DNA of 42,411 bases from a virus. Position 1 is the stretch's first letter. Each line of letters opens with the position of its first letter. Positions 2,730 through 42,411 of this stretch are shown here, piece after piece. The notes beneath the pieces are model-generated. The model did not search any database. It saw only the letters and a program-made list of their open reading frames with translations, and was not told where the DNA came from. Made by a program: the position numbers and the translations under genes. The stretch spans positions 1 through 42,411 of IMG/VR virus record IMGVR_UViG_3300032007_000171. One strand, 5' to 3'.

Positions 2730-3374
2730 ATGGCAACGACTCTCGATCAAATACGAAATCTTGATCCTAAAACCGTAAGTATCATCAAACAGACCAAAGG
2801 TAAGCAGCTTGGTACCGCCACTCCGGAGATAGCTCAGTACATTCTCCAGATATCGAGGGCGTACGAGATCTTCAGCGGACCCGAATCGGATGGTACCATC
2901 ATGTCGGCGGCCATACAGCTGCAGAAGGAGTTTCCTACCATCAGCCTGCGTACAGCCCGTCGGCGTATATCCGAAAGCATATCCTATGTACATTCCCAGA
3001 CAGATACCTGCCCGGAGGAATGGCTCGAGTTCTATGCCGATAAGATGGATAAGCTCGGTAACTTATGCGAGAAGAATGGTGAACTCGAGGCGGCGCGCCG
3101 ATCCTATGAGATAGCATGTGAGTACCGGACTAAAGCAGCTGCAGGTAGAGTGGATCCGGAGCGTATCAAATTCAAGCGCATGTTAGTGTCTCCGGATGTA
3201 CAGGCTGCACGCCTCGGATTGGGTGGCGCCGGTATGCGTGAACTGTTAGCGCGCGGTAAACAACTCATAGAAGAGTCCGGCATATCCAATAAGGATAAGG
3301 AGCGTGTACTGTCTGAGTTGGAGATGGAAGCCGGTATAGAAGATATCACCTATGAAGAAGCGGATAATCAATAA
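2730..3374 (+). CDS. Putative small terminase subunit (214 aa)
   Basis: The ORF lies immediately upstream of the large terminase, overlaps it by 23 nt, and follows the iteron field. Evidence is positional only. Confidence 0.4.
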   Translation: MATTLDQIRNLDPKTVSIIKQTKGKQLGTATPEIAQYILQISRAYEIFSGPESDGTIMSAAIQLQKEFPTISLRTARRRISESISYVHSQTDTCPEEWLEFYADKMDKLGNLCEKNGELEAARRSYEIACEYRTKAAAGRVDPERIKFKRMLVSPDVQAARLGLGGAGMRELLARGKQLIEESGISNKDKERVLSELEMEAGIEDITYEEADNQ

Positions 3375-10205: not shown

Positions 10206-13200
10206 TTATTTAAACGGATCATCGTTCGGATCAATACCTTCGATCTCCGGTTCTTTGCTCTTTGTCGGTTCTGCCGGTGCTGCCGGTTCGGTTTTCTCTT
10301 CAGCGGCGTTTACAGTGCGCTCGAAGTCGATGCCATTCAGCTGCTCGCATAGGATATCGTACTTAAACATATACGCGCTGGTAGTGGTGGTGTGCTTTAC
10401 CATCGTGCGCTTATCCTGATCCAGTGCCTCCCATGTGAACCGGGTGCCGTCGATAGAACCGATATACGCGCTATGGCTCCGGAAGTAGTTAGTTAGCGTC
10501 TGCTTACTCAGCGCATCCTTGCCGGTAACATCTTTCGCGTACGCTCGATAGGCTGCCTCCAGCGGTATGTACAGGATCTTACATCCTATACCTACCTCGG
10601 CGGTCTTCTCTTTCTTATTGCTCTTATATGTAAGTATATTAGTGGTACACTCGTCAATCTTGAACTCACGACCGGCAATCACTGTACCAATACTCAGCTG
10701 TGTATTCAGACTATAGAAGAAGTTACCGAGCTTGCTGGTCTTCGATATACTCTCCATCTGAGTGAGGACTTTCGAAATAGCCATCTCGTAGAAGTGCATG
10801 TGCGCCCATGGCAGACGGATATCGCACTGCTCTCCTACGAGACGACTGGTGGCTGATAGAATAGCTACAGATCGGATAACGCGCTCCAGGCCGTCCTTAT
10901 TGGTGGCCGATTCCCATGCGTCCTCTTTCATCCTCGCAACCTCTTCATTAAAATACCGCTTGAAATGGCGCTCGAAGACTGGGCGCTGTCTAATGATATC
11001 GCATAATATATTGCCCATACCCAGGTCGGCCTGTCTCTTTAGCTTTTCGAATAACTCACTGTCGATCTTATCGAAGCCTTCCTCTTTCTTTTGCACCTCA
11101 CAGATGATCACACGGTTACTCAACGAACCGTCATCCTGTTGTGGTGTGTCCTGACCCAGTAGGATAGGCGCTGCGTTCGTCTTACTGGTATCGAGGCTCT
11201 TATTAGCGATATCCTTCACCTTGGTACGGCCTTTATCATCATATACGGCACTCTTCAGACCTTGGAACTTGATCTGCGATATACCGTTATCGTTATACTC
11301 CTCCATGATTACCGGCATATTCCGGAAGTGCTCGAGCACAATAAAGAAGGCTGCATCGGATCCGCTGTTTAAGTTAAATACAGCTGCATCTCGCCTCATC
11401 CATAATCCCCGGATACCATATGCTAACTCTGTCTTACCGGATCCTGTAGGACCGGCGAAACACAAAGCCGTGAAACTACCCACGATGCTGTAGATTAAAT
11501 CTCGGAAGCTGCACGCGATGGCAAAGATCACAGCCCATTTGCCGTTTTCATTCACCTGAAATACGCGGTCCATAAGGCCGGCCCACTCAGTGAACTCCAT
11601 ACGATCCTTTTCCTGCGGCTCGAGATAGAATGCGTATTCATCCTGCTCATACGGATTATCTTCCTTCCGCCCGCCTAACCGGATGCTCGATGAGGCCGGG
11701 CTGTACAGGCGTATATTATTCACTTCAGCTACACCCAAGTTGTCGGTGTACTCCAGTTTCCACTCCCCATCCTTATCCGGATAATAGACGGCATTCGGTA
11801 GCATCAAAAAGCCTTCCGGCTGCCATCCGAATACGCGTGCCTCATAGCAATCGATGAAGTTATAACTAAGCACCTGGCGAATCTTATCCCACTGCTGGGG
11901 TGTACCGTTGAAGTTATATGCGCCGGCGCCAAATAGTCTCTTCTTCATATCCTGCAGGCTGACAAATGCATCAGATGGCCACTCTACATACTGACGGCCT
12001 CCGTACATGTGATTCAACCGGATCACGCGCTTACTGTGATCGGTGGCCGGATCCACGAATAACAGTGCCTCCATGTAGAAGTCACTCACTACCATGTGAC
12101 CGCCTCCTTTCTCATTCTTAAACACATAAGCTACCGGATGCGGCTCTTCTCCTTCTTTGGGTTGGCTAAGCAGCGGGAAAAATCCGTACTGCTCATAGTA
12201 CTTATTCCATATATCGTTTTCCTTGACGTACTCCGGTACATCATACAGGTTATTGATCGTAGCTATCTTATCGCTCAGATTAGCACGCCTCCGTTCCGCC
12301 TCACGTCTGTCTTTCTTGCTGCCTAAGATCTCATTAAGCAGTTTGTTATAGCTGGCGGCCGGCAAACGTAGTAGCTTCCGGAACTCTGCATTATTCACCT
12401 CTCGAGTGGTGGCGTCGCTGTCTGCGATGACGCGCATACACTGTCTGATGATATCCGCGCGCTCGTCACTCGTCATGTCATCGGTCATCGCGTCAGTACG
12501 CCGGCTCAGATACCACTCTGTAAATCCACTGATGCGCTCAATCTTGGCACCGTCATCGTCTGTATCCGGAATGCTTACGCGTACGCGCAAACCGTCACCG
12601 TGAATCGACTTGACTACCTGCAGCGTCACCGGTTCCTGGTCATCGTCACTGTCGCCGGTCAACTCCTCTTTGCGTACCATGATTGACTCCCACGCACGTA
12701 GCTTCTGGACGGCGTTCTTATTCGTGCCTCCTACCCATAGGATAGTGGGTGCCTCATCTACATGCTGGAAGAAGTAATCTTTGCTGAATGTAAGTATCAG
12801 ATTATTACCATAAACCTTCCGGAGATCTTCAGCATCATCTATTCCGTACAGGTCGCCTTTCCAATCGTCTTCAGCTACGCGGTTCTTATTCACGATGCTG
12901 CGTATGTCGCCTGATTCAACCTGATAACTGTATGCCAGGTTATTGATCAGCTTCTTGCGATAGATATCCTCCGGTACGCAGGCTATCATACATGCAATCT
13001 GCTCGACGTGCTTACTCATCTCGGCTGGATCTTCACTCGTCGGATAGATAGAGCTCATATACTCCGACCATTGTTTGGTTCGGTTAGCGACTATCATGGC
13101 CAGTGTCGTGTCTTCGGCTTTCTTCTGATCGACCTGCAGTAACCAGCTATCCGGATCCTCATTCATCGGAATCATTACCACCTTCACCTTAAAGCCCGCC

Positions 13201-14069
13201 TTCAGTAGCAGCTTCATGCTCTTTATGGTGGCGTTCTGGCCGGCGGTATCACCGTCATACATCAGAATGGCCTCGTCACAGTAACGCCTCAGTAACTGCA
13301 CCTGCTTTTCTCCGAAGGCGGTGCCGCTGCCGGCTACCGTATTCCGGAATCCGCACATCCACATTCGGATCACGTCATTCTGACCTTCTACTATATATAC
13401 GCATTTCTCATGCTGGATATCTTTCGATGCCTGGCGCAAACCGAATAACAGGCTGTCCTTCTTAAATAGTACGCTCTCTGCGCTATTCTTGTATTTCGCG
13501 CGCTCATTCGGATCCAGTGTCCGGGCGGTCCATCCTACTACCACGCCGCTCTGACTGTAGAACGGATAGGTGATACGGTTCCGGAATTCACCGGCGCTAC
13601 ACCATCCCAAACCGAAGGCCTTGGCCGCTTCTCTCGAGATGCTGCGCTTCTCCAGGTAATCGCTGAAGCTCTGCTCGGACTCACCGGCGCGCTCATACTC
13701 ATTCTGGCGCTGCTCGTTATCCCGGACTAACTTCTCACGCTCTAACCGGCGCTTCTTTTCCTCCGGACTCTCTTCCATGTCATCCGGGATCTCGATATTC
13801 TTCTTAGCGGCTAACATGCGCACGGCCTCGACGAAGGTCATACCCTCGACTTGCTGCACATACTTGAAGGCGTTACCACCTTCTCCACATACGAAACACT
13901 TGAAAATTCCGCGCGATGCACTTACGCTCATCGACGGGTGCCGGTCAGCATGGAATGGGCATAATCCCCATAGATTAGCGCCGCGCTTATTCAGAGTCTG
14001 ATATTCTGCTACTACATCCTCGATAGGATTAGCAGATTTGACTTTTTCAATAAGTTCTTCACTTAGCAT
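10206..14069 (-). CDS. Primase-helicase fusion protein (1287 aa): DnaG-type zinc finger + TOPRIM primase with a C-terminal P-loop NTPase
   Basis: CHC2 zinc finger CPFHADRHPSMSV...FKCFVCGEGG; TOPRIM YIVEGQNDV...LMYDGDTAGQ; C-terminal Walker A FAGPTGSGKTE and Walker B-like VIMEEYND. Confidence 0.8.
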   Translation of the reverse strand: MLSEELIEKVKSANPIEDVVAEYQTLNKRGANLWGLCPFHADRHPSMSVSASRGIFKCFVCGEGGNAFKYVQQVEGMTFVEAVRMLAAKKNIEIPDDMEESPEEKKRRLEREKLVRDNEQRQNEYERAGESEQSFSDYLEKRSISREAAKAFGLGWCSAGEFRNRITYPFYSQSGVVVGWTARTLDPNERAKYKNSAESVLFKKDSLLFGLRQASKDIQHEKCVYIVEGQNDVIRMWMCGFRNTVAGSGTAFGEKQVQLLRRYCDEAILMYDGDTAGQNATIKSMKLLLKAGFKVKVVMIPMNEDPDSWLLQVDQKKAEDTTLAMIVANRTKQWSEYMSSIYPTSEDPAEMSKHVEQIACMIACVPEDIYRKKLINNLAYSYQVESGDIRSIVNKNRVAEDDWKGDLYGIDDAEDLRKVYGNNLILTFSKDYFFQHVDEAPTILWVGGTNKNAVQKLRAWESIMVRKEELTGDSDDDQEPVTLQVVKSIHGDGLRVRVSIPDTDDDGAKIERISGFTEWYLSRRTDAMTDDMTSDERADIIRQCMRVIADSDATTREVNNAEFRKLLRLPAASYNKLLNEILGSKKDRREAERRRANLSDKIATINNLYDVPEYVKENDIWNKYYEQYGFFPLLSQPKEGEEPHPVAYVFKNEKGGGHMVVSDFYMEALLFVDPATDHSKRVIRLNHMYGGRQYVEWPSDAFVSLQDMKKRLFGAGAYNFNGTPQQWDKIRQVLSYNFIDCYEARVFGWQPEGFLMLPNAVYYPDKDGEWKLEYTDNLGVAEVNNIRLYSPASSSIRLGGRKEDNPYEQDEYAFYLEPQEKDRMEFTEWAGLMDRVFQVNENGKWAVIFAIACSFRDLIYSIVGSFTALCFAGPTGSGKTELAYGIRGLWMRRDAAVFNLNSGSDAAFFIVLEHFRNMPVIMEEYNDNGISQIKFQGLKSAVYDDKGRTKVKDIANKSLDTSKTNAAPILLGQDTPQQDDGSLSNRVIICEVQKKEEGFDKIDSELFEKLKRQADLGMGNILCDIIRQRPVFERHFKRYFNEEVARMKEDAWESATNKDGLERVIRSVAILSATSRLVGEQCDIRLPWAHMHFYEMAISKVLTQMESISKTSKLGNFFYSLNTQLSIGTVIAGREFKIDECTTNILTYKSNKKEKTAEVGIGCKILYIPLEAAYRAYAKDVTGKDALSKQTLTNYFRSHSAYIGSIDGTRFTWEALDQDKRTMVKHTTTTSAYMFKYDILCEQLNGIDFERTVNAAEEKTEPAAPAEPTKSKEPEIEGIDPNDDPFK

Positions 14070-16263: not shown

Positions 16264-16337
16264 TGACGGATGAGGTTTTCGACTCCTCGACCTCCGGGTT
16301 AACACCTCGGCGCTCTTACCATCTGAGCTAATCCGCC
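16264..16337 (-). tRNA. tRNA-Asn(GTT)-like gene, copy A (slightly degenerate)
   Basis: The minus strand reads GGCGGAT TA GCTC AGATGGTAA GAGC G CCGAG GTGTTAA CCCGG AGGTC GAGGA GTCGAAA ACCTC ATCCGTC A. It forms a cloverleaf with anticodon GTT. There is a G2-U71 wobble and an A-C mismatch in the anticodon stem. The T-arm is non-canonical (A53-A61, G54). Confidence 0.5.
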
Positions 16338-17262: not shown

Positions 17263-17336
17263 TGACGGATGAGGTTTTCGACTCCTCGACCTCCGGGTTA
17301 ACACCCCGGCGCTCTTACCATCTGAGCTAATCCGTC
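17263..17336 (-). tRNA. tRNA-Asn(GTT)-like gene, copy B (all stems paired except the T-arm)
   Basis: The minus strand reads GACGGAT TA GCTC AGATGGTAA GAGC G CCGGG GTGTTAA CCCGG AGGTC GAGGA GTCGAAA ACCTC ATCCGTC A. The 7-bp acceptor, D and anticodon stems are perfect, with U33 and A37 present. The T-arm again has A53-A61 and G54 instead of G53-C61 and T54. Confidence 0.6.
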
Positions 17337-19692: not shown

Positions 19693-20889
19693 ATGCCTAC
19701 AACTCCCGCGCACACGATCACCCCTTATATCCCTGCGGTCCTACGGAAAAATTCGCATGGGTATGTAATCGAGTACTACTTCTTCAATCACCTATCCGGT
19801 GGTTATGTCCGGCGTACTATAAAACTAAACAGGATCCGCAAGCGGTTCACTTCTGCCAAGGATTTCAAGGAGTACGCCACCAGTATTATCTGTAAGCTGA
19901 ATGTGAAATTAGCCGGCGGCTGGTCACCCATCGGCGAGGTGGTGAATACGCGCGAGTATGTACCCATCGCTCAAGTTATTGATCAGTACATCCGGGAGAA
20001 ACAAAGTTCATTGGCTAAAAACACAATGATGGCATACAGATCCTTCTGTATCCGATTGAAAAGTTGGGTGGAGAAAAATTATCCTCAATGTAACTGTGCG
20101 CTTTTTACAAAGGTAATAGCTATTCAGTTCATGGATCATATTTGGGCTGGAGATAGTGCTGTCGTAAACAAATCAAAGAAGAGTGCTCAGTGTTCCGGGC
20201 ATGTGAGCGAGCGTACGTATAATAATAACCTAAAACTTGGCCGGGCGTTTTTCGCCTGGTGTATCGATAAGTGCTATGCAAAAGAGAATCCCTTCGAGAC
20301 CATTAAGCCAAAGCGAGAGGCTAAAAAGAAGCGCATTCTGATACCAAAGCAGATCCGGACAAAGATAGATCAGTATTTTGCAGAGAACAATCCTGCCATG
20401 CGAATTGTTTGCCGGCTGGTATATACTTCTCTCTTGCGGCCGATAGAAGTATCCCGTGTGCGTGTGCATCAGATCCTATATGATAAATCATGCATCTACA
20501 TGCCGTTCGATCAGACAAAGAATGGGAAAGAGCGCTACGGCCGAATCGATAAGGATCTCGCCATGATGCTGCAGGAGTATCTTCATGGAGCATCTGCCGC
20601 TGATTATATCTTCAGCGATGGCACATGGTCCTATGGGTCCAAACAGAAAAACTCCCACGCGTTCGGTAATGCATGGGAGAAAATGAGAGAGGATCTGAAT
20701 CTTCCGGAGGAATATCAGCTATACTCTCTCCGGGACACCGGTATCCATGATTTGCTAATCGATGGAGTTGTAGATCTCGATGTGATGCATGCGGCCGGCC
20801 ACAGTGACCTCACAATGACTACCCGCTATGCAGATCACATCGACGAGGGTATGATTTCGCGCATTAACAATCAAGCTTCCGGGTACTAA
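19693..20889 (+). CDS. int: Tyrosine integrase (398 aa)
   Basis: The C-terminal catalytic pattern is present: LLRPIEVSR (Arg I), YSLRDTGIHDL (second Arg region) and HAAGHSDLTMTTRYADH (His ... Tyr nucleophile). Confidence 0.85.
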   Translation: MPTTPAHTITPYIPAVLRKNSHGYVIEYYFFNHLSGGYVRRTIKLNRIRKRFTSAKDFKEYATSIICKLNVKLAGGWSPIGEVVNTREYVPIAQVIDQYIREKQSSLAKNTMMAYRSFCIRLKSWVEKNYPQCNCALFTKVIAIQFMDHIWAGDSAVVNKSKKSAQCSGHVSERTYNNNLKLGRAFFAWCIDKCYAKENPFETIKPKREAKKKRILIPKQIRTKIDQYFAENNPAMRIVCRLVYTSLLRPIEVSRVRVHQILYDKSCIYMPFDQTKNGKERYGRIDKDLAMMLQEYLHGASAADYIFSDGTWSYGSKQKNSHAFGNAWEKMREDLNLPEEYQLYSLRDTGIHDLLIDGVVDLDVMHAAGHSDLTMTTRYADHIDEGMISRINNQASGY

Positions 20890-21888: not shown

Positions 21889-22671
21889 TTAGATTAGCCG
21901 TTTCTTAAACTCAAACCATAGATCTTCCGAGCTCTTCTCCTTGGTGGGTTTGCCGGTTTCTGCATCATAGATGGTGCCAGGATTCCACCCGATAATTCCA
22001 GGGCACAACTTCCGGCTGGCGTCGTAATGGCGGATCACGCGCTTCGAGGGGATGTTATACTTAGCCATGATCATCTTGGCTACCTTAACGGCGTTCTCCA
22101 CGGCTTCGTCTGTGAAGTACCATCCGGAATGGTTCGGAACCTTTGGCGTGGTGCCTTCCTTCAGGTTGCTGCAGATCTCGATACTTATGGCATTCCTGTT
22201 AGTTACATGATATTTTCCCTTTCCATCGCCTACGGCCCAGCAGTAGTAGTTCTCCGGATCCGGATTCACCTGCAGCATCGAGTCGTCATCCACGACGAAG
22301 TCGGCGCTCGCATTTCTATTCAGGAATACGTTGCGTGTCTTCGTTTCGGCATTGCCGGCCGAAGAACTTCCGGCCGTAAAGTGTATCACAAGATACTCGA
22401 TCGTCCTGCCATCGCTGTGTGTGATATGTTTGCTTATCGGGTCGTATATCACGTCATCTCCCAGTACGGAGTTGTCTTGCGGCTTGCCGGTCTTGGCCAT
22501 GGCTGCCCAGGTCTTATCTCCTACGATGCCATCGGCCGTAAGCCCGTGCGCATTCTGCCATTGTTTTACCTTACCCTCCGTGGTTGGGCCAAAATCACCA
22601 TCCGGGCGGCATCCCAGAATCTTCTGCAGGGCTTTTACCTGGTCGCCCTTACTACCTCTCTTCAGTAACAT
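21889..22671 (-). CDS. Endolysin: N-acetylmuramoyl-L-alanine amidase (Amidase_2/PGRP type) with an N-terminal peptidoglycan-binding domain (260 aa)
   Basis: The PG_binding_1-like segment is GDQVKALQKILG..DGDFGPTTEGKVKQWQ..GLTADGIVGDKTW. The amidase segment is YLVIHFTAGSS...ADFVVDD...ISIEICS...VIRHYDASRKLCPG. Confidence 0.85.
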   Translation of the reverse strand: MLLKRGSKGDQVKALQKILGCRPDGDFGPTTEGKVKQWQNAHGLTADGIVGDKTWAAMAKTGKPQDNSVLGDDVIYDPISKHITHSDGRTIEYLVIHFTAGSSSAGNAETKTRNVFLNRNASADFVVDDDSMLQVNPDPENYYCWAVGDGKGKYHVTNRNAISIEICSNLKEGTTPKVPNHSGWYFTDEAVENAVKVAKMIMAKYNIPSKRVIRHYDASRKLCPGIIGWNPGTIYDAETGKPTKEKSSEDLWFEFKKRLI

Positions 22672-23388: not shown

Positions 23389-23634
23389 TCACTCATCGAA
23401 GCCATAGTCGGTTGGATTGAACGGCTCATCGATACTATGCACGCGACAGTATTCCTGCTGAAGCCCTTTGAGAGTTTCTACAGGTGGGACGGCGGGGAAA
23501 ACTACCTCTCCTACTTTGCTTAATCCACTACCCGGTATCGGCTCAAAGCCGAAACGAAATAACACGCCCTGCGGCAAAGCGGCTTTACGCGGCGCATTGC
23601 AGGGCACTACATTTTGATTTACTACGGTATTCAT
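23389..23634 (-). CDS. Hypothetical protein (81 aa) overlapping the RT 3' end by 50 nt
   Basis: There is a single ATG at 23632-23634 and no motif was recognised. Confidence 0.4.
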   Translation of the reverse strand: MNTVVNQNVVPCNAPRKAALPQGVLFRFGFEPIPGSGLSKVGEVVFPAVPPVETLKGLQQEYCRVHSIDEPFNPTDYGFDE

Positions 23635-24781
23635 ATCTAAATTGTTTATATTGTTTGTCTATTTCTTCCATTCTGCTTTTACATATAGCAGCCGGTTTAT
23701 ATTCCGGAAATAGCTGGCATACCAAATGATTCTTCTTTTCTACAAAGTACAGATATTTACAGAAATCGCTACTAAGGACCATGTAGGCAAGCATCTTCTG
23801 CTGATTAAACGATGCAGTGTGGCACATCATTCCGGTGTAACTATTGATTGAGCATAACAGACGCTGTGCTGATTCTGCAGACGCGCCTTGTTCGATAGCT
23901 CGATGGATTTTCCCTTTACATGCTCTAATCGTGCGATCTGCAGTGTATATGCGATTGGCAAATACATACTTACCGCAAAAGTATGCACCATGTCTTACTG
24001 GTTGACAGTAGAACTTCGTCGGATGTAATGTGAGCTGTATTCCGGATAAGATCCATGCAGATGCTATCCGAATAGCGTTCACTAAGCAGGCGTCGCGTAC
24101 CACGGCCGCCATGTCATCAACAAACTGGACAATCCTTACTCCTGGTATGAATGACAGGATCATTCCCCAGATAGCTGATATCATATTGGCTATGAGTTGT
24201 GAATAAAAGTTACCTATGGGTAATCCCTTTCCGGAATTGTTGCGTAACGTCTTATTCTTTGGGACCTTGTTTAATAGTGCAAGCGGGCTGTGTATATAGC
24301 ATCCATCGGCCGGGTCGTTTGTAATGAGCGCATGTAGTAGCTGAAGCATCTGCTCTACTTCGTCATCAGAATAGCCTTCCGGTCGAAAGCGATTGCAAAA
24401 CTGTACAAATGTATCAAAGGACATTTGTCTTGCGAGATTCATAAAGAATCCCTGGATATCCATCGTGATCACCATTCCATCCGGCATCTCACGCATCCAT
24501 CTCTGGAGCTGTTCGGCGGCCGTCTGTGCTGATAATCTCGGTCGGTTTCCGTGACTGATATTCCCATTACTTGTGTGCAGACTCTCTGTGACCTGCAGTA
24601 TGAACGGTGCGATGAGATGGTGAATGATCCTATCTACGTACATCGCTGCAAATACCTCTCGGAGCTTCGGATATGTAAGCGCAAAGCATACGCTCGGATC
24701 CGGTTTGTACGTTTTGGATATCAGTCTATATGCAAGATCGTATATTCGCGATAGGTGAAAGTGATATCTGGTCGCATTCAT
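23585..24781 (-). CDS. DGR reverse transcriptase (398 aa from ATG 24781; the open frame continues upstream through TR to ATG 25078)
   Basis: RT motifs are ITMDIQGFF, GLPIGNFYSQLIANM (DGR-type [LI]GxxxSQ) and VQFVDDMAAV (YxDD box). The gene lies directly downstream of TR. Confidence 0.85.
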   Translation of the reverse strand: MNATRYHFHLSRIYDLAYRLISKTYKPDPSVCFALTYPKLREVFAAMYVDRIIHHLIAPFILQVTESLHTSNGNISHGNRPRLSAQTAAEQLQRWMREMPDGMVITMDIQGFFMNLARQMSFDTFVQFCNRFRPEGYSDDEVEQMLQLLHALITNDPADGCYIHSPLALLNKVPKNKTLRNNSGKGLPIGNFYSQLIANMISAIWGMILSFIPGVRIVQFVDDMAAVVRDACLVNAIRIASAWILSGIQLTLHPTKFYCQPVRHGAYFCGKYVFANRIYTADRTIRACKGKIHRAIEQGASAESAQRLLCSINSYTGMMCHTASFNQQKMLAYMVLSSDFCKYLYFVEKKNHLVCQLFPEYKPAAICKSRMEEIDKQYKQFRYEYRSKSKCSALQCAA

Positions 24782-24844
24782 CCTATGGCTTTTGTGTGTA
24801 AAACATTCCTCCTCTGCGGTTAGTAGCTGATTCGCTTCTCGTTC

Positions 24845-24988
24845 TAATTCTGCAACCGGGACAACAGCGTAAGTGTTGTTCTTGTTGTTGTTGTTAACAT
24901 TCGCTGACGGAATTGTCACATACCATGCGTTGTTGGCATTGTTCTGCTGGCACGTCCACGTGTTGCCCGTCGGCAGAGTGCTGTGATT
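24845..24988 (-). repeat. DGR template repeat (TR), 144 bp
   Basis: It matches VR 25510-25653 at a constant offset of 665. The coding-strand sense contains 12 AAC codons. All 13 differences from VR are at TR adenines (T on the plus strand). Confidence 0.9.
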
Positions 24989-25074
24989 GCTATGTCGCTC
25001 TGGTGATATAACTTGCGGACTTTCGTCTTCATCGCAAGTGGCGACACCATTATAATGAGTGAGCGCGCTCGTCT

Positions 25075-25449
25075 TCATCCTTGGACTTGACGATTCTGAC
25101 CCTCTTGCGCGTTAGCGTTAGCAGACGCGTATAAGCATTGCTCGATATCGTCACACATAACGTCTAACTTTGCGCAAAAATCTTTGCTCCATCCATGCAT
25201 TAGCATCACCAGGTAGATATCCGCTTGGATCTCTTCGAGCGTATCGGTGGCGCGCTTCAGATAATCTTTGCCTCTGGCTTGCCGAAAGGCCTGGATATAC
25301 AGCCTATGTGCCGTCTCGATCGTGGAATCAAGAATGGAGTGCTGTATATCTCGAGGTGCTTTCTTCTTGCCATCAAGAATCATCTCATATAAGAGCGTGC
25401 ATTTCTTGATGATGGGTCTCTCTATGGCTTTTCTGCTACTATTCCGCAT
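25075..25449 (-). CDS. avd: Accessory variability determinant (Avd)-like protein (124 aa)
   Basis: A small, basic, helical-looking ORF lies between the VR-bearing gene and TR, the canonical avd position. Its stop overlaps the next ATG (ATGA). Confidence 0.65.
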   Translation of the reverse strand: MRNSSRKAIERPIIKKCTLLYEMILDGKKKAPRDIQHSILDSTIETAHRLYIQAFRQARGKDYLKRATDTLEEIQADIYLVMLMHGWSKDFCAKLDVMCDDIEQCLYASANANAQEGQNRQVQG

Positions 25450-25473
25450 TGGAGTGAATGACTTACTATTTGT

Positions 25474-25487
25474 CGTGCGTCCGCACG
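25474..25487 (-). promoter_or_regulatory. GC-rich hairpin 22 nt downstream of VR (candidate DGR target-recognition stem-loop)
   Basis: The minus strand reads CGTGC-GGAC-GCACG, a 5-bp GC-rich stem with a 4-nt loop, located between the VR end (25510) and the avd start (25449). Confidence 0.4.
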
Positions 25488-25506
25488 GCTGGAGGTTTCA
25501 CCTAAT

Positions 25507-26658
25507 TTATAATGCTGCAACCGGGACAACAGCGTAAGTGCCGTTCTTGCCGTAGTAGTTAACATTCGCTGACGGAATTGTCACACACCACGCGCTGTTG
25601 GCATAGTTCTGCTGGCACGTCCACGTGTTGCCCGTCGGCAGAGTGCTGCGATGCAAGAGCGATAAAAGCGTATTGATCTCCGAATAATACACATACATCA
25701 TCAATAGATGATTGATAGTAGGGAGAGTATATTGACGCTCATCGCCATCGTATGCTTTGTAATCCCATGCGAACTCGGCAGCGGGTGCACCTGTGATATT
25801 ATTAGCCACGCGAGGCACAACAAACCTACGAATGTATGTGACTCCATCCCAATAATATGCCTGATTAGTAGTATTATCTGTTTCGTCGTTCGTTACCACA
25901 TACACCTGTTGATCGTACATAAGGTGAATCCCGCTTGCTTCCATCTCTGCCTTGGTAGCAAACCGCACACATCCATACTCACTGTAATCCTTGTCCGGAT
26001 CGGACGGATCATAGTTCGTATGCGGCAACTTCTCCGGATTATAGAATAGTAAGATCCGGCGAGTGTTCTCGTAAGACTCAAATATCAACGAGTTCATCAG
26101 CACATTCAGGAACGAACCTGTTTGTGCGCCATATAATCCGGGGACGCTATCGGTCGTATTAGCCCATGTTTTTGTAGAATACCCCGTTCCTGCCACCAAA
26201 GGCAGACCTATCACAAATGATTGATAAGGTGTGATAACTGCCGGCTGGGCCGGTTCCGGCGTAGTACCATGCTCGTCAATGTATTGTTGCCACTCGACGG
26301 CTGAATAGCGAGTGCCGGACTTGCCCATGAGGCATATATCATGCGAACGCGTGCCTATCATGCTGACAAGTTGCGCAAACTGCGAGAATGGTGTATCGTC
26401 CGCAATGACTGCGCCCGCATTTCGCAATGCTGCTGTGATGGCATTTATGCTTGTGAGAAGTAGCTGGCACTTCTCGGCTGCAGTAGTTCCTACCACTTCA
26501 CGGTTGCACAGATCTAACTTAGCTTTGATATTAGCCACTAAATCTGTCTTATCGACATTTGTCATGGTCCATTCTTTAACAGAATTAACGGCCATGAGTA
26601 CCAGATCTTCAGCCATACCCAATGTCATGGTACGGTCTGCGTTGTAAGCATCATTCAT
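25507..26658 (-). CDS. DGR target protein (383 aa), putative receptor-binding tail fibre protein with a C-terminal variable region
   Basis: This is the last gene of the tail-fibre block. The C-terminal 48 codons are the VR. ...TWTCQQNYANSAWCVTIPSANVNYYGKNGTYAVVPV resembles the C-type-lectin/DUF1566-type VR scaffold (W..AW...G......K.....V). Confidence 0.8.
   Translation of the reverse strand: MNDAYNADRTMTLGMAEDLVLMAVNSVKEWTMTNVDKTDLVANIKAKLDLCNREVVGTTAAEKCQLLLTSINAITAALRNAGAVIADDTPFSQFAQLVSMIGTRSHDICLMGKSGTRYSAVEWQQYIDEHGTTPEPAQPAVITPYQSFVIGLPLVAGTGYSTKTWANTTDSVPGLYGAQTGSFLNVLMNSLIFESYENTRRILLFYNPEKLPHTNYDPSDPDKDYSEYGCVRFATKAEMEASGIHLMYDQQVYVVTNDETDNTTNQAYYWDGVTYIRRFVVPRVANNITGAPAAEFAWDYKAYDGDERQYTLPTINHLLMMYVYYSEINTLLSLLHRSTLPTGNTWTCQQNYANSAWCVTIPSANVNYYGKNGTYAVVPVAAL
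25510..25653 (-). repeat. DGR variable repeat (VR), 144 bp
   Basis: Mismatches to TR are at 25514, 25541, 25542, 25550, 25551, 25554, 25557, 25586, 25591, 25595, 25605, 25649 and 25653. At each of these TR has T on the plus strand, which is A on the coding strand. Confidence 0.9.
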
Positions 26659-29536: not shown

Positions 29537-31306
29537 TTACGGCTTCCTTCCGGCTATAAATTCGATGGTCACATGCTGCTTATCGCTATTCTCGAGTTCG
29601 TACTGGAGTTTGGCCGGCCAGCACAATCGACCTTGGATTATGTAGGGTGTTGTGAAGTCAAACTGATTCACATCGACTGTCTTCATTACGGTAGTGATGG
29701 TAATACGATCACTATTCTCTGCGATGATATTGTACTCGGTGTTAAACTCCTTATTACATTGGGTTGTATTGATATATAGCTGGTCGTACTCTTCCGCTTC
29801 CGGAGACTGCCTGGACCATACTTCGATGTTGTCAATAAGGATGCTATTATAGATGGATTCCATAATACTTATGCCGGTGTTATGCATCTGTATGCACACT
29901 CCAAATGCGAGTGGGCACTCTGACGTTTTGGTCTCGTCTATGTCGCCTCCACGCGTGGTGGTAGTGCGCTGGCACACGCCATCCAGTTCGAAGCTAAAGC
30001 ATTCTCCATAATCATAATCCATAGTTGTAGGATCCATACCATTTTCAACGCAGTATCCATCACGAAGAGACTCACACCATGAGTCATATAGATATTCCGG
30101 AGTTTTAATCTTATCCATATCGTCGATAGGCATGTGATCCGGAGAAGAGTTAAAGGTAATTTGCTTATCGCGCATAGCCCCTAATTTGCGGGTCTTCGAA
30201 AATAGCTTCAGGATCTTCTCTGTGAACTGCATTTTGACAGTTTTATTGTCCGGCTGCAGTATAAATACCACGCCGAATTGCGCCTGCACGGCCGATATGA
30301 ACTCCTTGGCGCTTACTTCCGGAACCAATGCGCTGTATGGCATGTATCCGGGATAGATAGCGTCCATGGTGTTATTAAGCACTACGATCTGATTCCATTT
30401 CACCTCGAGTCCATCAGGCCAATACGGCCAATATGTACCAAAGTCATAATTTAGCGTATATCCCAGATAGTTGAATATCTGCTTAATGACGACATCTAAC
30501 CGTAAGAATCCGGTACAGTATAGGTGTTTATTTTTGTTCTTGTAACCTACCATCCATGTACTTGTACTGTGATCATAGACTCGCGGTTGTTTCTTCCCGT
30601 AGCACTCGGTTGTTGTGTACCATTCAAACTCGGATTTTAGACGTACCATTTTATAGGTGTCTTCGCCGTAGGTTTTTTGTAGAGTCATTAACTCCTCATG
30701 TAAAGTTCTGTCTTCCGCATTCCCCGTTACATAGCGATTAACACATGCCGGCTCGTTTAACCATCCGTCTTTTGTATTCATGGCGGCTACAATAAAGTCG
30801 TGATTCTTCAGCCAGTTGTTTAAGTCATCGCCATATGTATAAGGTGGGACCATATAGTCATAGAATTGTGCTATGAGCTGCGTGCGGTAATACTCGATAT
30901 CATCAAGGAGACCCGGAATGTTTCCGAAATGCATATCGGCCATCGCCTGCGGTACGGTCACGGCATCCAGCTTACTCCAAATATTCGACTCATTGAAGTA
31001 CAGTGTAGCCTCGACGGCCTCATCTGAGCATCCGGAGATGCACATGGTGGCCGCTTTCTGCCAGCTACCCTGCGTCACTATCACGGAGATATCCGGAATG
31101 GCCCGGATGGCAGCTTCTTCAGAATCGTAAATATCGAGATGATCCGGGAACTGCAGAAGCTTCCGGTTTTTATGCGTCAGCGGTAAGGATACCGGTAATG
31201 ACATAGATCCGGTCTTCGAGAAGATCGGGCTGGCCATCTCTATATTTAATTTGAGATCGAGCGGTAAATCAAACTTGCTACCGGTCTCTAACAATGCGAT
31301 GATCAT
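29537..31306 (-). CDS. Tail protein following the tape measure (589 aa; distal-tail/tail-tip candidate)
   Basis: ATGA overlap with the tape-measure stop. Evidence is positional. Confidence 0.55.
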   Translation of the reverse strand: MIIALLETGSKFDLPLDLKLNIEMASPIFSKTGSMSLPVSLPLTHKNRKLLQFPDHLDIYDSEEAAIRAIPDISVIVTQGSWQKAATMCISGCSDEAVEATLYFNESNIWSKLDAVTVPQAMADMHFGNIPGLLDDIEYYRTQLIAQFYDYMVPPYTYGDDLNNWLKNHDFIVAAMNTKDGWLNEPACVNRYVTGNAEDRTLHEELMTLQKTYGEDTYKMVRLKSEFEWYTTTECYGKKQPRVYDHSTSTWMVGYKNKNKHLYCTGFLRLDVVIKQIFNYLGYTLNYDFGTYWPYWPDGLEVKWNQIVVLNNTMDAIYPGYMPYSALVPEVSAKEFISAVQAQFGVVFILQPDNKTVKMQFTEKILKLFSKTRKLGAMRDKQITFNSSPDHMPIDDMDKIKTPEYLYDSWCESLRDGYCVENGMDPTTMDYDYGECFSFELDGVCQRTTTTRGGDIDETKTSECPLAFGVCIQMHNTGISIMESIYNSILIDNIEVWSRQSPEAEEYDQLYINTTQCNKEFNTEYNIIAENSDRITITTVMKTVDVNQFDFTTPYIIQGRLCWPAKLQYELENSDKQHVTIEFIAGRKP

Positions 31307-34300
31307 GATAAACTTCCTTTTGCTTTGATGTTATCCATTTTCTTCTCCGTATCCTTGAACTGGTAGTAATTGAGATCTGCATGGAGCTTTTTGCTCTTCA
31401 TCTCATCTACCTGATCTGCTAGGCTCTGAATGATACCTAATACCGACTCAGATACGCCTCCGGTGTCGGTATAACCTCCGTCAGCGAATCCATGCACGCC
31501 GGCGCGGCCGTGTTTACGGCTCTGGCGTACGCCCTCGATGGAGCGTACCATGGAAACTACAGACGGGTTCCGGAGTTCTGCCTGGCTTACGACGTACTCG
31601 CCTTTGTGTACAACGCCTGCCGGCTCATGCACGCCTCCGTCGCCGGTATAACCTCCGTCACTGTATCCACGGCCACCGGCTTGGTATTCCGGCTTGATGG
31701 TAGTAACGGATTCGGCACTGCCTTCATTGATTCCGGATGAACCTCCGGATCCTGTGCTCTCGAGTGTCTGATTCTTGATCTCGTCACGCTTAGCGAGGAT
31801 GTTAGCCTCCTGTACCCCGGCCAATCCGAGCAATAAAGCGGATAGGATACCGGCGGCGATAGGACCGGCGATAGGACCAAGCGACATACTGGTAGCCCAG
31901 ACGGTAGCGATACCCATTGCGGTATTCACCCATAACTGCGCGCTCTGGATGGCCGCGTCGGCATCGGCCTGTTTCTTCTTCATCTCCAGTTCCTTCTCCG
32001 CGTATTCCTGCTCGATGCGCTCGCGCTCTTCGTTATTATCACCCACTAAGGCTAACTCCTTCTGCTTTTCGGCCTCGAGTTTGCTGAACTCCATTTCGAA
32101 AAGCTGCTGTGATACCTGTGCAGCGCTCGATAGTACCTGGTTCACTACGCTGCCGATCATCTGAACGTGCGCCTGGATGGCTTGGCCTACATTGGCGAAT
32201 CCGGCTTCACTCTGCGCCTGGAACTGTTGGATAGCACCCATCGCATTCGCAAAACTGCCTAAGAGCTGGCCACCCAATGTGTCGCCGCACGCTTCGGCCG
32301 TCTCTGTTAGGATATCGCGTAACTCGCCGGTAAACTCACGCGCCTCTGATAAACGATCCTGCAGGGTCTGATTGAGTGATCGCGTCGCTTCGGTCACGGC
32401 TTTGTTCGCCTCTTCGACTACCTCGGCATCAAGATCCTTCACCGCTTCAGCATAGATCTTTTCAGCAGCTACGCGTGCCAGTGCGTACGTCTCGGTGATC
32501 TTGTTACGCTGCTGATGGTACTGCGTTTCGGATATCAGACCTAAGTTGTAGCGCCGCTCGAGCAGATCCAGCTCTCGCTGCTCATTCTGCTCTGTTATCT
32601 TCAGTGCGTCGGTGCGCGCTTTCTTGGCAGCCTTCAGGATGGCCTTATTAGCCTCCTCCTGGTTCTTGATCTGATTGTCGGCTATCTTCTTCTCGATATC
32701 GGATGTATCCATACCGTACTGCTGCATGAGCGCCTTCAGCTTATCCAGGTGCTGCGTCTGAAGCTCGCGCGTATGGGCGTCGTACTGTTCCTGCGTCATC
32801 TCGCGATTAAGCAGCGCTTTTTTGTCCGCGCGTAAGCTGTCATCGAGCCATGTCTGCAGATCCTTCTCCATTCTGGAGTAGTTATCCTTATTGAGTGCCA
32901 TCTGCGCCTGGGCGGCTTTGATCTGCAGATCTCCGGTCTCCTTACCGCGTTTGCGCGCCAGTGCCAGTTCGGCATCGGCCTGCTCTTTCGCCAGCTCGAG
33001 CTGTTGACGCTTGCTCTCTTCGGAAGTAATGGTCATGTTCGCCTCGTTCTGAATGATGACTGCCTTCTTCTTGGCGTACGAATCCTGCAGCTTCTTCAGC
33101 TCCTCTTTGTACGCCTTATCATCCACCTCTGCGCCGGCGGCCGCTGCTTTCTTCTTGGCGGCTATCTTATCTCTCTGCCGAGCCACCTCGAGACGCTTCT
33201 GTAACTCGGTATTCTCTTTTTCGTAGCGCTTTGTAAGCTCATTGTACGAATCGATCGCGTTTTTTTCATGCTCATATAGCTTCTCATATGGTCTGCCATT
33301 AAGGATGTTTTGGATGGTACCTTGGGCGTTCTCGATAAATGCTTTGCGCGCCTTAATGGCCTCCTCAATTTTCTGCGTGTTATACAGATCCTCTTCAGAT
33401 TGGCGATTGGTTGCGTCTTTGATCTGCAATTCCAGATTTTTTAATTTTTTCTTGGTGTCAGCGATAGCCGTTTCGTACCACTCGATCGCCTCTTTATCTG
33501 CGTACGGGTCGGATTTGAGCGCGTCTAATTTTTGCTGGTATTGGATCAGAGCTCCTTCCCATGAGTTCATCTCGCCGGCGATAGCGGTTGGATCCAGTGC
33601 ATGCTCTGCAGACTTGGCGGCGTTTTCGGCGGCTGTGCCCGCAGTGGTGTATGCTTCCGTTACCTTCTCGATGCTACCTTGTAGCTTCCGGATCTCTGCG
33701 CGTTTCTTCTCCTGCTCCTTTGGATCATCTATTTCCATCAGCTCCATCTCTGCCTGTAGTAGCTTCTTATTGAGATCTACCAGCGTTTCCTGATATGCCT
33801 GTGCAAGCGCCTGCTCTTTGAGTAACTGGATACGCTTATCGTACTCCCGGTTCGTGTTTAAGAGCGCGGCCTGCAGCTCTTCATTCGTCACCTTATCCTT
33901 ATCCAGGTGTGCCAGGAATCCGGGGTACTGCTCATTGAGGCGCTTGAGCAGATCTGCGCGGAGTTTTTCGTTATCGGTTGTTTTGATGATATTCTTTACC
34001 AGCGCGTTCAGCTGCTCTTTCTCGGCCATAACGGAGGCGGTATTCTCCTGCGCGATCTCTTTCGCGCGCTCCTGGGTGTTATTCATCGCCTCCTGGAGTG
34101 TGTCGGCTTTCTTGGCATTGCCGATAAAGGTGATAAGCGCTGATGTAGCTGCAGCGATAGCCATAGCGATCAATCCCCAGGGAGATGACATCAGACTTTT
34201 CTTCAGGCCTTCATTAGCCAGGGTGGCTGCTTTCGTCGATAGGATCTCGGCTGCTTTCGCCTTCGCCTGTGCTATCAGCGCTTTAATATCCAGCTGGCGC

Positions 34301-35886
34301 CATGCCGTGATAGACTTGGCTGTTACCAGATAGATAGCGAGCGTCCGGAGAACTATCTTCAGTACGGTTTGATTCTTCTGGATCCACTGCACAGCCTTCT
34401 GCATACCTAAGATGATATTCGTGCCAAAATCAATAAGCGACTTAAATACGCCTTTGCTGTTGTAGAACTGAAGCATCAGACCCTCCCATGCTGATTGAAG
34501 AAGTTTGACGGATCCTTCTACAGTATCCAGTTTTGTTTGTTGCATCTGCGCCAGCTCTGCGTTGACGCCGGTGATCGAGTCTTTAAGCGTGGTGATTGTC
34601 TCGGCGCCATTCAGGAACGTCTCGAAAGCAGCTACGGATCGCTTGTCGGTCAGATCAAGTGCTTCAGCCAGTGATACGCCTTCATCCTTCAGCTGCTTCA
34701 ATGCCGGCGCAAGGTCATCGAGGCTCTTGATTGGTTTACCAAGTGCCTGTGCAAGTTTTCCGGAGTCATCTGCGAGATTGAGCAGAATGTTACGCGTGGC
34801 CGTTGCTGCAGAAGACGCGTCGAATCCGCTGTTTGCCAGCGTACCTAACAGCGCCACCGTCTCTTCGATCGAGAAGCCGAATGCGTTAGCTACCGGCGCG
34901 ATGGTACTCATCGAGTTCTGTAGATAGCTGAAGTCCAATGCCGATTTGGTAGTAGCTACGGCCATCGTGCTCACGACGCGCGTCATCTCAGATGCGTCTA
35001 AACCGAATGCCCGGAGCGCTGCGCCGGCTAACTGTGCCGCTTCCGGGATATCGGAGCCGGTTGCCGTGGCAAATTGCAGGATCGATTCTGTGGATTGCAG
35101 GATCTCTGTCTCATTGAAACCGAGTTTTGCCAGCTCCGTCTGCATCATCGTTACTTGTGAGGCGGTGTACTCGGTCACGGCGCCCAAGCGTTTCGCGTCT
35201 TCAGTGAGGCGCTTTACGCCTTCCTGGGTGGTACCGAGTACGGAAGCCAGCGAGGCGTTCGCAGCCTCAAAGGATACGATGTTACCGATACCGTCTCGGA
35301 TGGTGTTGAATAAAGCCATGACGCCCCGAAGTGCCAAGCCGGCGCCGAATGCGCCTTTGAAGACGTCGGCCACCATGCTGCTCTTCTTTCCCAGTTTGCC
35401 CATCTGAGCCTCCGTCTTAGCTAATTCGCTCGACAGACGCTTGAATGTCTCCGGAGATGCAGCCTTGCTGGTTACATCCAACTGCTTGCGTAACTGCGAT
35501 GCACGCTCCCGGAGTTGCTGCATCGTCATCTGATTAAGCTTCAGCGAGGATGTGAACTGCGCTACCTTCTCGCGGTCTTTATCGAGCGTGTTTTGGGTCT
35601 GCTTCAGCTGTGTAGTTAGCTGTGCCTGTTTCTGCCGGTTTGCCTCGACGGCTGCAGACAGCTGCCTGTACGCTGCCGTGTTCGTCTTACCGGCGGCTTC
35701 CATCTTTGCCAGTTTCTTCTCTTGTTTCGTCAGCTCATTGTTGACTTTGTTTAATGATGAAGTCAGAGAAGCGTTCTGTTTCTCCAGTTTGCCGATCTCT
35801 GCCGATAAGGAATTGATCTGACCTTGGGCGCCGTTGGCCTCTATGTCAATGATGAATCGTAACTGATCGTCTGTTAGTTTTGCCAT
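31303..35886 (-). CDS. Tail tape measure protein (1527 aa)
   Basis: The protein is very long with extended coiled-coil (Ala/Glu/Lys/Gln-rich) regions. It has hydrophobic Gly-rich segments (LGPIAGPIAAGILSALLLGLAG) and C-terminal GGYTGDGG...VHKGEYVV motifs typical of TMPs. Confidence 0.85.
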   Translation of the reverse strand: MAKLTDDQLRFIIDIEANGAQGQINSLSAEIGKLEKQNASLTSSLNKVNNELTKQEKKLAKMEAAGKTNTAAYRQLSAAVEANRQKQAQLTTQLKQTQNTLDKDREKVAQFTSSLKLNQMTMQQLRERASQLRKQLDVTSKAASPETFKRLSSELAKTEAQMGKLGKKSSMVADVFKGAFGAGLALRGVMALFNTIRDGIGNIVSFEAANASLASVLGTTQEGVKRLTEDAKRLGAVTEYTASQVTMMQTELAKLGFNETEILQSTESILQFATATGSDIPEAAQLAGAALRAFGLDASEMTRVVSTMAVATTKSALDFSYLQNSMSTIAPVANAFGFSIEETVALLGTLANSGFDASSAATATRNILLNLADDSGKLAQALGKPIKSLDDLAPALKQLKDEGVSLAEALDLTDKRSVAAFETFLNGAETITTLKDSITGVNAELAQMQQTKLDTVEGSVKLLQSAWEGLMLQFYNSKGVFKSLIDFGTNIILGMQKAVQWIQKNQTVLKIVLRTLAIYLVTAKSITAWRQLDIKALIAQAKAKAAEILSTKAATLANEGLKKSLMSSPWGLIAMAIAAATSALITFIGNAKKADTLQEAMNNTQERAKEIAQENTASVMAEKEQLNALVKNIIKTTDNEKLRADLLKRLNEQYPGFLAHLDKDKVTNEELQAALLNTNREYDKRIQLLKEQALAQAYQETLVDLNKKLLQAEMELMEIDDPKEQEKKRAEIRKLQGSIEKVTEAYTTAGTAAENAAKSAEHALDPTAIAGEMNSWEGALIQYQQKLDALKSDPYADKEAIEWYETAIADTKKKLKNLELQIKDATNRQSEEDLYNTQKIEEAIKARKAFIENAQGTIQNILNGRPYEKLYEHEKNAIDSYNELTKRYEKENTELQKRLEVARQRDKIAAKKKAAAAGAEVDDKAYKEELKKLQDSYAKKKAVIIQNEANMTITSEESKRQQLELAKEQADAELALARKRGKETGDLQIKAAQAQMALNKDNYSRMEKDLQTWLDDSLRADKKALLNREMTQEQYDAHTRELQTQHLDKLKALMQQYGMDTSDIEKKIADNQIKNQEEANKAILKAAKKARTDALKITEQNEQRELDLLERRYNLGLISETQYHQQRNKITETYALARVAAEKIYAEAVKDLDAEVVEEANKAVTEATRSLNQTLQDRLSEAREFTGELRDILTETAEACGDTLGGQLLGSFANAMGAIQQFQAQSEAGFANVGQAIQAHVQMIGSVVNQVLSSAAQVSQQLFEMEFSKLEAEKQKELALVGDNNEERERIEQEYAEKELEMKKKQADADAAIQSAQLWVNTAMGIATVWATSMSLGPIAGPIAAGILSALLLGLAGVQEANILAKRDEIKNQTLESTGSGGSSGINEGSAESVTTIKPEYQAGGRGYSDGGYTGDGGVHEPAGVVHKGEYVVSQAELRNPSVVSMVRSIEGVRQSRKHGRAGVHGFADGGYTDTGGVSESVLGIIQSLADQVDEMKSKKLHADLNYYQFKDTEKKMDNIKAKGSLS

Positions 35887-42365: not shown

Positions 42366-42411
42366 GAATGTCAGCGGCCATACAGCGCATGAGGCTGATG
42401 CGTCAGGCACA
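42285..42411. repeat. Terminal direct repeat, identical to 1-127
   Basis: See the feature at 1-127. Confidence 0.95.

Follow-up and report, generated by a model that had tools for sequence, protein, structure and literature searches.

Organization of the locus

We analyzed a viral DNA of 42,411 nucleotides (IMG/VR record IMGVR_UViG_3300032007_000171; "the window" hereafter denotes this whole stretch), in which the genes and repeats of a diversity-generating retroelement (DGR) lie on the minus strand at the end of the tail gene block. Read along that strand, the locus begins with the gene of the DGR target, a protein of 383 aa (25507-26658), which is the last gene of the tail module and carries the variable repeat (VR) at the C-terminus of its product. 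It is followed by the gene of an Avd-like accessory protein of 124 aa (25075-25449), predicted to be a four-helix bundle with an isoelectric point (pI) of 8.35, by the template repeat (TR), and by a long reverse transcriptase (RT) open reading frame (ORF) of 497 aa (23585-25078) that has its ATG at 25078 and contains the motifs GLPIGNFYSQ and FVDD. The list of ORFs agrees with the description given in an earlier reading of the letters of this DNA (the original prediction), namely a 383-aa target, a 124-aa ORF of the size of Avd, and an RT ORF with the two motifs.

Template and variable repeats

A repeat search uncovered a direct repeat of 146 nt (24842-24987 and 25507-25652) with a spacing of 665 and 91% identity. 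The TR (24845-24988, minus strand) is 144 nt long, contains 48 adenines and 13 Asn codons, and lies in frame within the RT ORF; the VR (25510-25653, minus strand) constitutes the last 48 codons of the target. It had been claimed that TR and VR differ at 13 positions, each of them an adenine in TR, and a base-by-base realignment of the minus strand returned exactly the same 13, of which eight are A>G, three A>T and two A>C. With 48 A in 144 nt, the probability that all 13 mismatches fall on A by chance is about 2e-7 (hypergeometric). Two statements about codons required correction: TR has 13 Asn codons (10 AAC and 3 AAT) rather than 12 AAC codons, and the Tyr-to-Cys change, which is indeed present, is TAT>TGT and does not start from TAC. 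No further TR-like copy was found when the window was searched for one.

Substituted sites in VR are 25653, 25649, 25605, 25595, 25591, 25586, 25557, 25554, 25551, 25550, 25542 and 25541. The codon at 25653, the first base of the repeat, specifies N, H, D or Y across the family, as expected from NAT, and the position is probably a true mutagenesis site. The thirteenth mismatch, at 25514 (24849 in TR), is a genuine difference that the original prediction had attributed to adenine mutagenesis along with the others, and that attribution did not hold. TR has GAA and VR has GCA at this codon, as in every related cassette, and residue 382 of the target is Ala in 53/53 homologues. Because the difference is identical in all cassettes and Ala382 is found in 53/53 homologues, we conclude that 25514 is a fixed TR/VR boundary difference of the type found at the initiation of mutagenic homing (IMH) site, rather than a product of mutagenesis. 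In all cassettes the VR 3' end closes with two fixed differences, C/A (25514) and T/G (25509), beyond which homology stops. The IMH-like 3' end of VR (25510-25540, minus strand) carries no substitution in the window copy, which is faithful to TR until about 25515, and within this segment TR changes specific to a lineage recur in the cognate VR. From these alignments, we take the C/A and T/G pair to mark the IMH-like 3' limit of information transfer from TR to VR.

Comparative evidence for adenine-specific diversification

Related loci were collected with a degenerate VR pattern, which gave two IMG/VR contigs, and with a target-protein search, which gave more in IMG/VR and in metagenome-assembled genomes (MAGs). 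Metagenome contigs were also scanned for exact matches to a pattern joining the VR 3' end and the hairpin that follows it; only two contigs were recovered, both already represented, so that no additional VR alleles were gained at the nucleotide level. Across 15 related cassettes, 215/219 TR/VR substitutions are located at TR adenines, and the few exceptions lie at alignment edges. One could envisage that the repeats are an ordinary duplication or a gene-conversion tract with no DGR involved, the differences falling on adenines by coincidence; the chance probability in the window, the proportion across the 15 cassettes and the adjoining DGR-type RT together effectively refute coincidence, leaving this explanation with a negligible probability.

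The TRs are near-identical between related phages, and the lineage-specific substitutions that they do carry (C>A in locus L001, T>A and G>T in L002, and others) are mirrored in the cognate VR, as repeated TR-to-VR copying predicts. VR differences between related phages occur at TR-A sites only. The cluster to which the window target belongs has 14 members at >=90% identity; in the 13 members that were aligned, at least three residue types occur in 16 columns of the C-terminal 48 residues and in 3 columns of the other 335, and in a second cluster formed at >=90% identity the corresponding numbers are 14 in VR and 1 outside. More broadly, in 53 target homologues (43-95% identity to the window protein) the positions of TR Asn codons are hypervariable, with an N/S/T/Y/G... 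repertoire. Across the family, hypervariability is found at the TR Asn, Tyr, Thr and His codons and scaffold residues are invariant; W346, C348, Q349-350, A353, A356, V359, S363, V366, K371 and V377-A381 are near-invariant among the 53 homologues. The clusters and the related cassettes served as a proxy for read mapping, and the variation in them is confined to TR-adenine codons. Judged from these sequences, the DGR is apparently active and VR diversification appears to be ongoing.

Two loci show a different pattern. In L011 (ENA ERZ27291676 k119_332960), which encodes a distant RT relative (29% identity), the TR (2357-2448) is again within the RT ORF; its frame differs from that of VR (TTTTRTT instead of NNNNKNN), and only 14/18 TR/VR mismatches are at TR adenines. 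An RT homologue on a 155-kb contig of a Bacteroides caecigallinarum genome, P0035, has a TR-like N-terminus that reads ...CVVLASGGCSAAGSFGRLGVW... versus ...YVNLTNDNCNNNNTNNRYSVW... in its close relative P0034. The adenine-rich template of P0035 has apparently been overwritten or has decayed, and the locus may represent a chromosomal DGR of a bacterium that has degenerated.

Reverse transcriptase and Avd-like protein

The window RT matched the phrog_1423 reverse transcriptase family with an E-value of 1.5e-36, and 8ub7 was the only match in a single-sequence search of the PDB. The entry 8ub7_A (328 aa; WENLLDAYRK..., GIPIGSLTSQLFAN, YMDD) is, we assume from its length and sequence, the RT of phage BPP-1 (bRT); a literature text search for the code 8UB7 returned nothing. 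A profile of 19 members of the RT clade scored 126 bits (E 1e-35) on 8ub7, a DGR RT of 328 aa, and the same profile gave lower scores with group II intron RTs (61 bits), Cas6-RT-Cas1 (47), Drt2 (39) and retron Ec86 (31). The NCBIfam model group_II_RT_mat gave the window RT 50.8 bits against a cut-off of 300. Thus the family profile favours the DGR RT over group II and retron RTs, bearing out the view that the enzyme is of the DGR kind. The IGxxxSQ-type motif is represented by GLPIGNFYSQ, which is invariant in the RT clade. Among phages, the nearest RTs (about 30% identity) occur in Bacteroides phages Bacuni_F1, F2, F4 and BS-TP1 and in Faecalibacterium phage Lagaffe.

An AlphaFold2 (AF2) model of the 124-aa protein consists of four helices (predicted local distance difference test score, pLDDT, 87.3). 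In Foldseek it aligned with BPP-1 Avd (4dwl_D) with TM-scores of 0.72 (query) and 0.82 (target) and a root-mean-square deviation of 2.0 A, at a weak E-value of 0.29; the other high-TM matches included 2gsc and 2rld, and E-values were weak overall (0.06-0.4). PF05635 was touched at E 0.045 by 2/8 members of the Avd-like family, and hhalign detected no similarity between that family and the Avd of Bacuni_F1. Based on its size, its position and the predicted fold, the protein is a probable Avd.

Target protein

The AF2 model of the target (pLDDT 84.8) shows a helical N-terminal region, a central domain and a C-terminal lectin-like domain of the DUF1566/Lcl_C type that carries VR; the C-terminal region is modelled with confidence and the N-terminal 100 residues with low confidence. 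The best PDB match of the C-terminal domain in Foldseek is the C-terminal (DUF1566) domain of Legionella Lcl (8q4e_A; E 8.7e-4, prob 1.0), after which only weak C-type-lectin-like matches follow. Residues 307-383 aligned by hhalign with the DUF1566 target of Bacuni_F1 (E 1.4e-5, 29% identity). The Pfam family Lcl_C/DUF1566 (PF07603) matched residues 310-380 below its gathering threshold (17.8 versus 34.9 bits, E 0.004), and comparison of the target with the PDB by sequence, either single or as a profile, gave nothing meaningful. A structure prediction had been suggested as a test for a C-type-lectin fold at the C-terminus, and the models point in that direction, with Lcl_C/DUF1566 as the best match and the CLec matches weak. 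Despite the sub-threshold Pfam match, structural and profile evidence puts the predicted C-terminal domain in the DUF1566/Lcl fold class.

An active DGR does not by itself imply a change in host range, as the target could be another ligand-binding protein, exposed on the virion surface or expressed in lysogeny. No sequence family names the target, the model of its first 100 residues is poor, as noted, and DUF1566 domains also occur in proteins other than those of tails, such as the fimbrial protein 4eps and Lcl. However, the target gene closes the block downstream of the tape-measure gene and stands directly before the lysis genes, and among viral proteins in BFVD its model best matches an annotated tail-fibre protein and DUF1566 proteins encoded by crAss-like phages (E 1e-7 to 1e-5). 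In addition, the gene at the syntenic position in Bacuni_F1 is the DGR target there, and the tropism of that phage is reported to track the DGR (bioRxiv 10.1101/2020.10.09.334284). We therefore regard a target with no bearing on host range as unlikely.

Two observations concern the tail genes of relatives. The L009/L001 locus (IMGVR_UViG_3300031992_000182) has avd-TR-RT DNA about 90% identical to that of the window and a target protein only 68% identical, a contrast that suggests modular exchange of the N-terminal part of the target between related phages. In a distant relative, the tail-module gene upstream of the target (L012, 490-1920; gene 223-2154) contains degenerate tandem repeats of about 21-42 nt (...TCTCATGCTGAAGG...). 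These were ruled out as DGR-type repeats, since the copies differ at all four bases, and are ordinary repeats.

Candidate cis-acting elements flanking the repeats

Counted from the first base of the target stop codon, a GC-rich hairpin, CGTGC-GGAC-GCACG (25474-25487, minus strand), starts 22 nt downstream. Hairpins or cruciforms of phage DGRs have GC stems of 7-10 bp and a 4-nt loop, are located 4-34 bp from VR, and are needed for BPP-1 homing (PMC3240598). The stem has 5 bp in the window versus 7 bp (GCCGTGC/GCACGGC) in relatives; in the distant L007 it reads ATCGTGC/GCACGAT, which amounts to two compensatory pairs. The window hairpin lost a stem pair by a G>A change (...GCACGA versus ...GCACGG in L004, L005, L006, L008 and L009), and the weakened hairpin might lower homing efficiency in the window genome. 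The 3' side of VR thus has an IMH-type boundary as well as a GC-rich hairpin whose loop is 4 nt long, and by analogy with the known elements 25474-25487 is a candidate target-recognition hairpin or cruciform.

The shortened stem, 5 bp and a mismatch where relatives have 7 bp, is what one might expect if the element were a relic or had been inactivated recently, so that the TR/VR pair and the genes were inherited and the window copy no longer diversifies; degenerate copies apparently do occur in the RT clade, as in P0035 of the Bacteroides caecigallinarum genome. Against this, the ORFs of RT, avd and target retain their full length without frameshifts and are 92-97% identical to those of relatives, the VR allele of the window is distinguished from those of its closest relatives by TR-A sites alone, and many VR alleles are found among members of the window target's 90% cluster. 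Loss of activity in the window copy is therefore very improbable.

Two further predicted structures precede TR. Stem-loop 1 (25065-25102, core 25069-25093, minus strand) spans the avd stop codon and the RT ATG, and RNAalifold combined with pair counts in 14 cassettes showed compensatory changes at its pairs 16-39, 18-37, 22-31 and 5-45. Stem-loop 2 (24992-25047, minus strand) has about 15 bp, six of which show compensatory changes, and a loop of variable length, and ends 4 nt before TR. Taken together, the two stem-loops have ten compensatory pairs, and 98.8% of cells are paired versus 25-44% in slid controls; the observed score was reached in 0/500 shuffles. Structured elements are thus predicted upstream of TR, overlapping the 3' end of avd. 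A conserved pattern in the leader peptide encoded by this region, "YNG..TC...QV", was considered as a protein-level constraint and rejected, as the conserved letters correspond to the covarying arms of stem-loop 2 and the loop varies in length.

The TR lies within the RT reading frame

The TR was originally placed downstream of the Avd-sized ORF, which is correct, and just before the RT ORF, which is not, as it is inside that ORF and in frame. The RT ATG at 25078 overlaps the avd stop codon as ATGA, and the ORF reads through TR in the VR frame. Codons 1-30 form a leader, codons from about 31 to 78 are TR, and the RT domain extends from about codon 85, where the conserved N-terminal motif of the RT (LLTAEEECFTHK, which aligns to WENLLDAYRK of bRT) starts some 10 codons after TR. 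Each of the 15 cassettes has a frame open through TR with an ATG upstream. Of 43 RT homologues, with identities as low as 29%, nearly all were called as proteins of 460-560 aa that have a TR-like Asn-rich N-terminus and an ATG upstream of TR. Exceptions are L010, in which the frame is open through TR without an upstream ATG and the gene caller took a GTG at the TR 3' end, and L011, with TR in another frame.

These results could be explained in two ways. We lean toward the first, in which RT is translated from the ATG upstream of TR and TR is read as codons of an N-terminal extension. The second, which we consider a substantial possibility if short of a probable one, is that RT starts after TR or within its 3' end at a non-ATG or internal codon, in which case TR would be an untranslated template and its in-frame position an inherited accident of the coding sequence from which it was copied. 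The L010 locus, with no upstream ATG and a GTG start called at the TR 3' end, is in agreement with such a late start, as are L011, which reads TR in a frame other than that of VR, and Bacuni_F1, in which a small ORF of its own, ending where RT starts, holds the TR. The leader peptide, moreover, is near-neutral among close relatives (about 7 non-synonymous versus 3 synonymous changes, by a hand count from the alignment). A late start is more difficult to reconcile with the sequence between TR and the RT domain, as the window has no in-frame ATG, GTG or TTG from the TR end to the conserved N-terminal motif. Initiation at the first Met downstream of TR would leave that motif out of the protein, this Met is missing in the P0004, P0014 and P0015 homologues, and about half of the cassettes have no ATG within 90 nt after TR. 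The retention of an upstream in-frame ATG in 15/15 cassettes and in nearly all 43 homologues, and the ATGA stop/start overlap with avd in the window, likewise argue for translation through TR.

A non-coding spacer of about 140 nt, as in BPP-1, was not found after TR; the sequence at this position is in frame and encodes the RT N-terminal motif. RNAalifold analysis of the avd-TR-RT 5' region and of 215 nt from the TR 3' end onward detected no conserved long-range duplex or downstream structure, and no counterpart of the spacer or of the priming site was located. The equivalent of the priming spacer may be embedded in coding sequence. A more comprehensive proposal, which we put forward tentatively and hold to be rather doubtful as a whole, is that TR consists of RT codons coupled to avd via ATGA, that one RNA acts both as mRNA for the Asn-rich extension and as mutagenesis template, and that the priming function resides within the codons of the RT N-terminus. 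If this were true, translation and reverse transcription of one RNA would compete or be coupled, which would provide a built-in regulator of diversification frequency, and the cis-RNA architecture would be unlike that of the only DGR studied mechanistically.

Phage genome, host and setting of the cassette

The window has an exact direct repeat of 127 bp at its ends (1-127 and 42285-42411) and therefore looks like a genome of about 42.3 kb that was assembled completely, as a circle; judging from the length of the overlap, the terminal repeat is more likely to be a k-mer artefact of assembly than a biological feature. Genes were assigned for terminase (3352-5082), primase (10206-14069), a tyrosine integrase (19693-20889, plus strand; Phage_integrase E 1.6e-13, phrog_1), an amidase endolysin (21889-22671), the tape-measure protein (31303-35886) and the head protease (38731-39618). 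The gene order is tape measure, distal tail genes, target, avd, TR/RT and then amidase, which places the DGR cassette between distal tail genes and lysis genes. The integrase gene is about 1 kb from the endolysin gene and on the opposite strand. Related loci were found on contigs of 44-235 kb of Bacteroidales and Paludibacteraceae MAGs. The presence of an integrase gene and of relatives on MAG contigs of 130-235 kb argues that the phage is temperate, and, because its relatives occur on contigs of these MAGs, the host is probably a Bacteroidales/Paludibacteraceae bacterium. Megablast searches of GenBank phages with the cassette and with 25 kb of the window gave zero nucleotide matches, and the phage therefore has no close isolate relative there.

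A sigma-70 promoter scan, which does not cover Bacteroidales promoters, found no site on the coding strand within the cassette. Downstream of RT is an ORF of 81 aa with no assigned function (23389-23634, minus strand), which shares 50 nt with the 3' end of RT. The ORF is kept at the same position in 15 related loci (36-88% identity by tblastn) and had no match in Pfam or PHROG. The ORF is 88% identical to those of L014-L016, whose targets are only 62-74% identical, a pattern unlike that of RT and target. It may serve the DGR as an accessory gene not yet characterised, or else it may open the lysis module. Within it, directly after the RT stop codon, is a terminator-like hairpin with a T-rich tail (CGCTTTGCCGCAGGGCG; 23565-23581, minus strand); terminator-like sites in the region number 8 versus 4.6 +/- 2.0 expected. 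Elsewhere in the window, the Rfam tRNA model gave two matches above its gathering score (16264-16337 and 17263-17336, minus strand; 44.9 and 54.2 bits), in conflict with ARAGORN, which found zero tRNA in the whole window.

A probable functional DGR and its proposed mechanism

Based on the repeats, the comparative data and the gene content, we conclude that the whole region is very probably a functional DGR of a temperate siphovirus-like phage. Several results weigh against this conclusion or parts of it. The evidence for activity is comparative only, coming from sequences of related loci. The window RT alone did not reach the threshold of Pfam RVT_1 (E 0.058), and the Avd-like protein had no significant match in sequence and profile searches of Pfam, PHROG and the PDB and has a pI of 8.35 versus an average of 9.5 +/- 0.7 for the Avd family (Wu et al. 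2018, PMC5758913). With regard to the cis elements, the window hairpin has a stem of 5 bp and a loop, GGAC, that is off the GRNA consensus, and RNAalifold detected no conserved structure in the 150 nt after TR. Finally, the target is probably a receptor-binding protein, as proposed from its position and fold only.

The DGR could operate as follows. A transcript that contains TR (24845-24988) and the two structured elements just upstream would be copied by the RT of the cassette, probably with the assistance of the four-helix Avd-like protein, and template adenines would be misread during copying. The cDNA would then replace VR (25510-25653), and with it the last 48 codons of the target gene (25507-26658). 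The fixed TR/VR difference would bound integration on the 3' side, and the GC hairpin located 22 nt downstream probably guides it. As a consequence, about 13 Asn codons and Tyr, Thr and His codons would be randomised on the ligand-binding face of the DUF1566/C-type-lectin-like domain, and receptor specificity would probably be altered. The anatomy of the repeats, the adenine specificity, the affinity of the RT, the predicted folds, the concerted evolution of TR and VR and the hypervariability within populations come from the data presented here; in this scheme, we infer the RNA intermediate, the role of Avd, the function of the hairpin and the receptor-binding role.

DUF1566/C-type-lectin tail proteins are well documented as targets of phage DGRs in gut and rumen Bacteroidales, and overlap of TR with an RT ORF is on record. 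Mildly unusual features are the location of TR in the RT ORF without a non-coding spacer, an Avd-like protein without sequence similarity to known Avds, and the covarying stem-loops before TR. General knowledge of DGRs is unchanged by the window element, which has some value for mechanistic comparison. It provides an annotated example of a complete and apparently active DGR, with well-defined targeting elements, in an uncultivated temperate Bacteroidales/Paludibacteraceae phage lineage, together with natural VR alleles from many samples, and a compact cassette for the study of DGR RNAs that lack a non-coding spacer.

Comparison with known DGRs

The element had been described as BPP-1-type, a description that fits the gene order and does not fit the target class, which is DUF1566/CLec2 and not Mtd, nor the position of TR within the RT ORF with no non-coding spacer. 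The BPP-1 DGR (mtd-avd-TR-brt) shares with it the order of target with VR, accessory gene, TR and RT, which corresponds to architecture B1 of Wu et al. 2018 (PMC5758913), as well as a VR at the C-terminus of a tail protein, adenine-specific differences, and a GC hairpin after VR. In contrast, the window target has a domain of the DUF1566/Lcl type and not the Mtd fold, the Avd-like protein is less basic and without detectable sequence similarity, the catalytic box is FVDD where the 8ub7 RT has YMDD, and the VR 3' end is less GC-rich. The priming adenosine of BPP-1 resides in a non-coding spacer of 140 nt that follows TR (bioRxiv 10.1101/2023.10.23.563531), whereas the sequence after TR in the window encodes the RT N-terminus.

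A VR located in a DUF1566-like C-terminal domain is a property shared with the CLec2/DUF1566-DUF823-Fib_succ_major DGRs. These make up target category d of Wu et al. 2018, with the Legionella pneumophila DGR as the type, and weak, mixed Pfam matches are typical of them. The window element is phage-borne and tail-associated, unlike the Legionella-type DGRs, which have a chromosomal lipoprotein target. Overlap of TR with the 5' end of the RT ORF is shared with "group 3" of DiGReF, in which TR overlaps the annotated RT ORF (Schillinger et al. 2012, PMC3521204); that group was defined from annotation only, whereas the arrangement described here is conserved across an RT clade (29-92% identity).

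Among isolated phages, Bacuni_F1 (and F2/F4) has the closest RTs, with about 30% identity over 89% of the query. Bacuni_F1, a published DGR phage (Hedzet et al. 2021, PMC8143477), has a host within Bacteroidales, as the window phage probably does, and shares the layout of DUF1566 target, Avd, TR, RT, small ORF, amidase and recombinase. The two differ in that there is no nucleotide similarity between them, the Bacuni_F1 target has 253 aa versus 383 aa in the window with unrelated N-terminal parts, the Avd proteins have no detectable similarity, and the TR of Bacuni_F1 is a separate ORF of 81 aa that ends at the RT start, unfused. Taking the shared layout and these differences together, the window DGR is closest in organisation to the Bacuni_F1 DGR.

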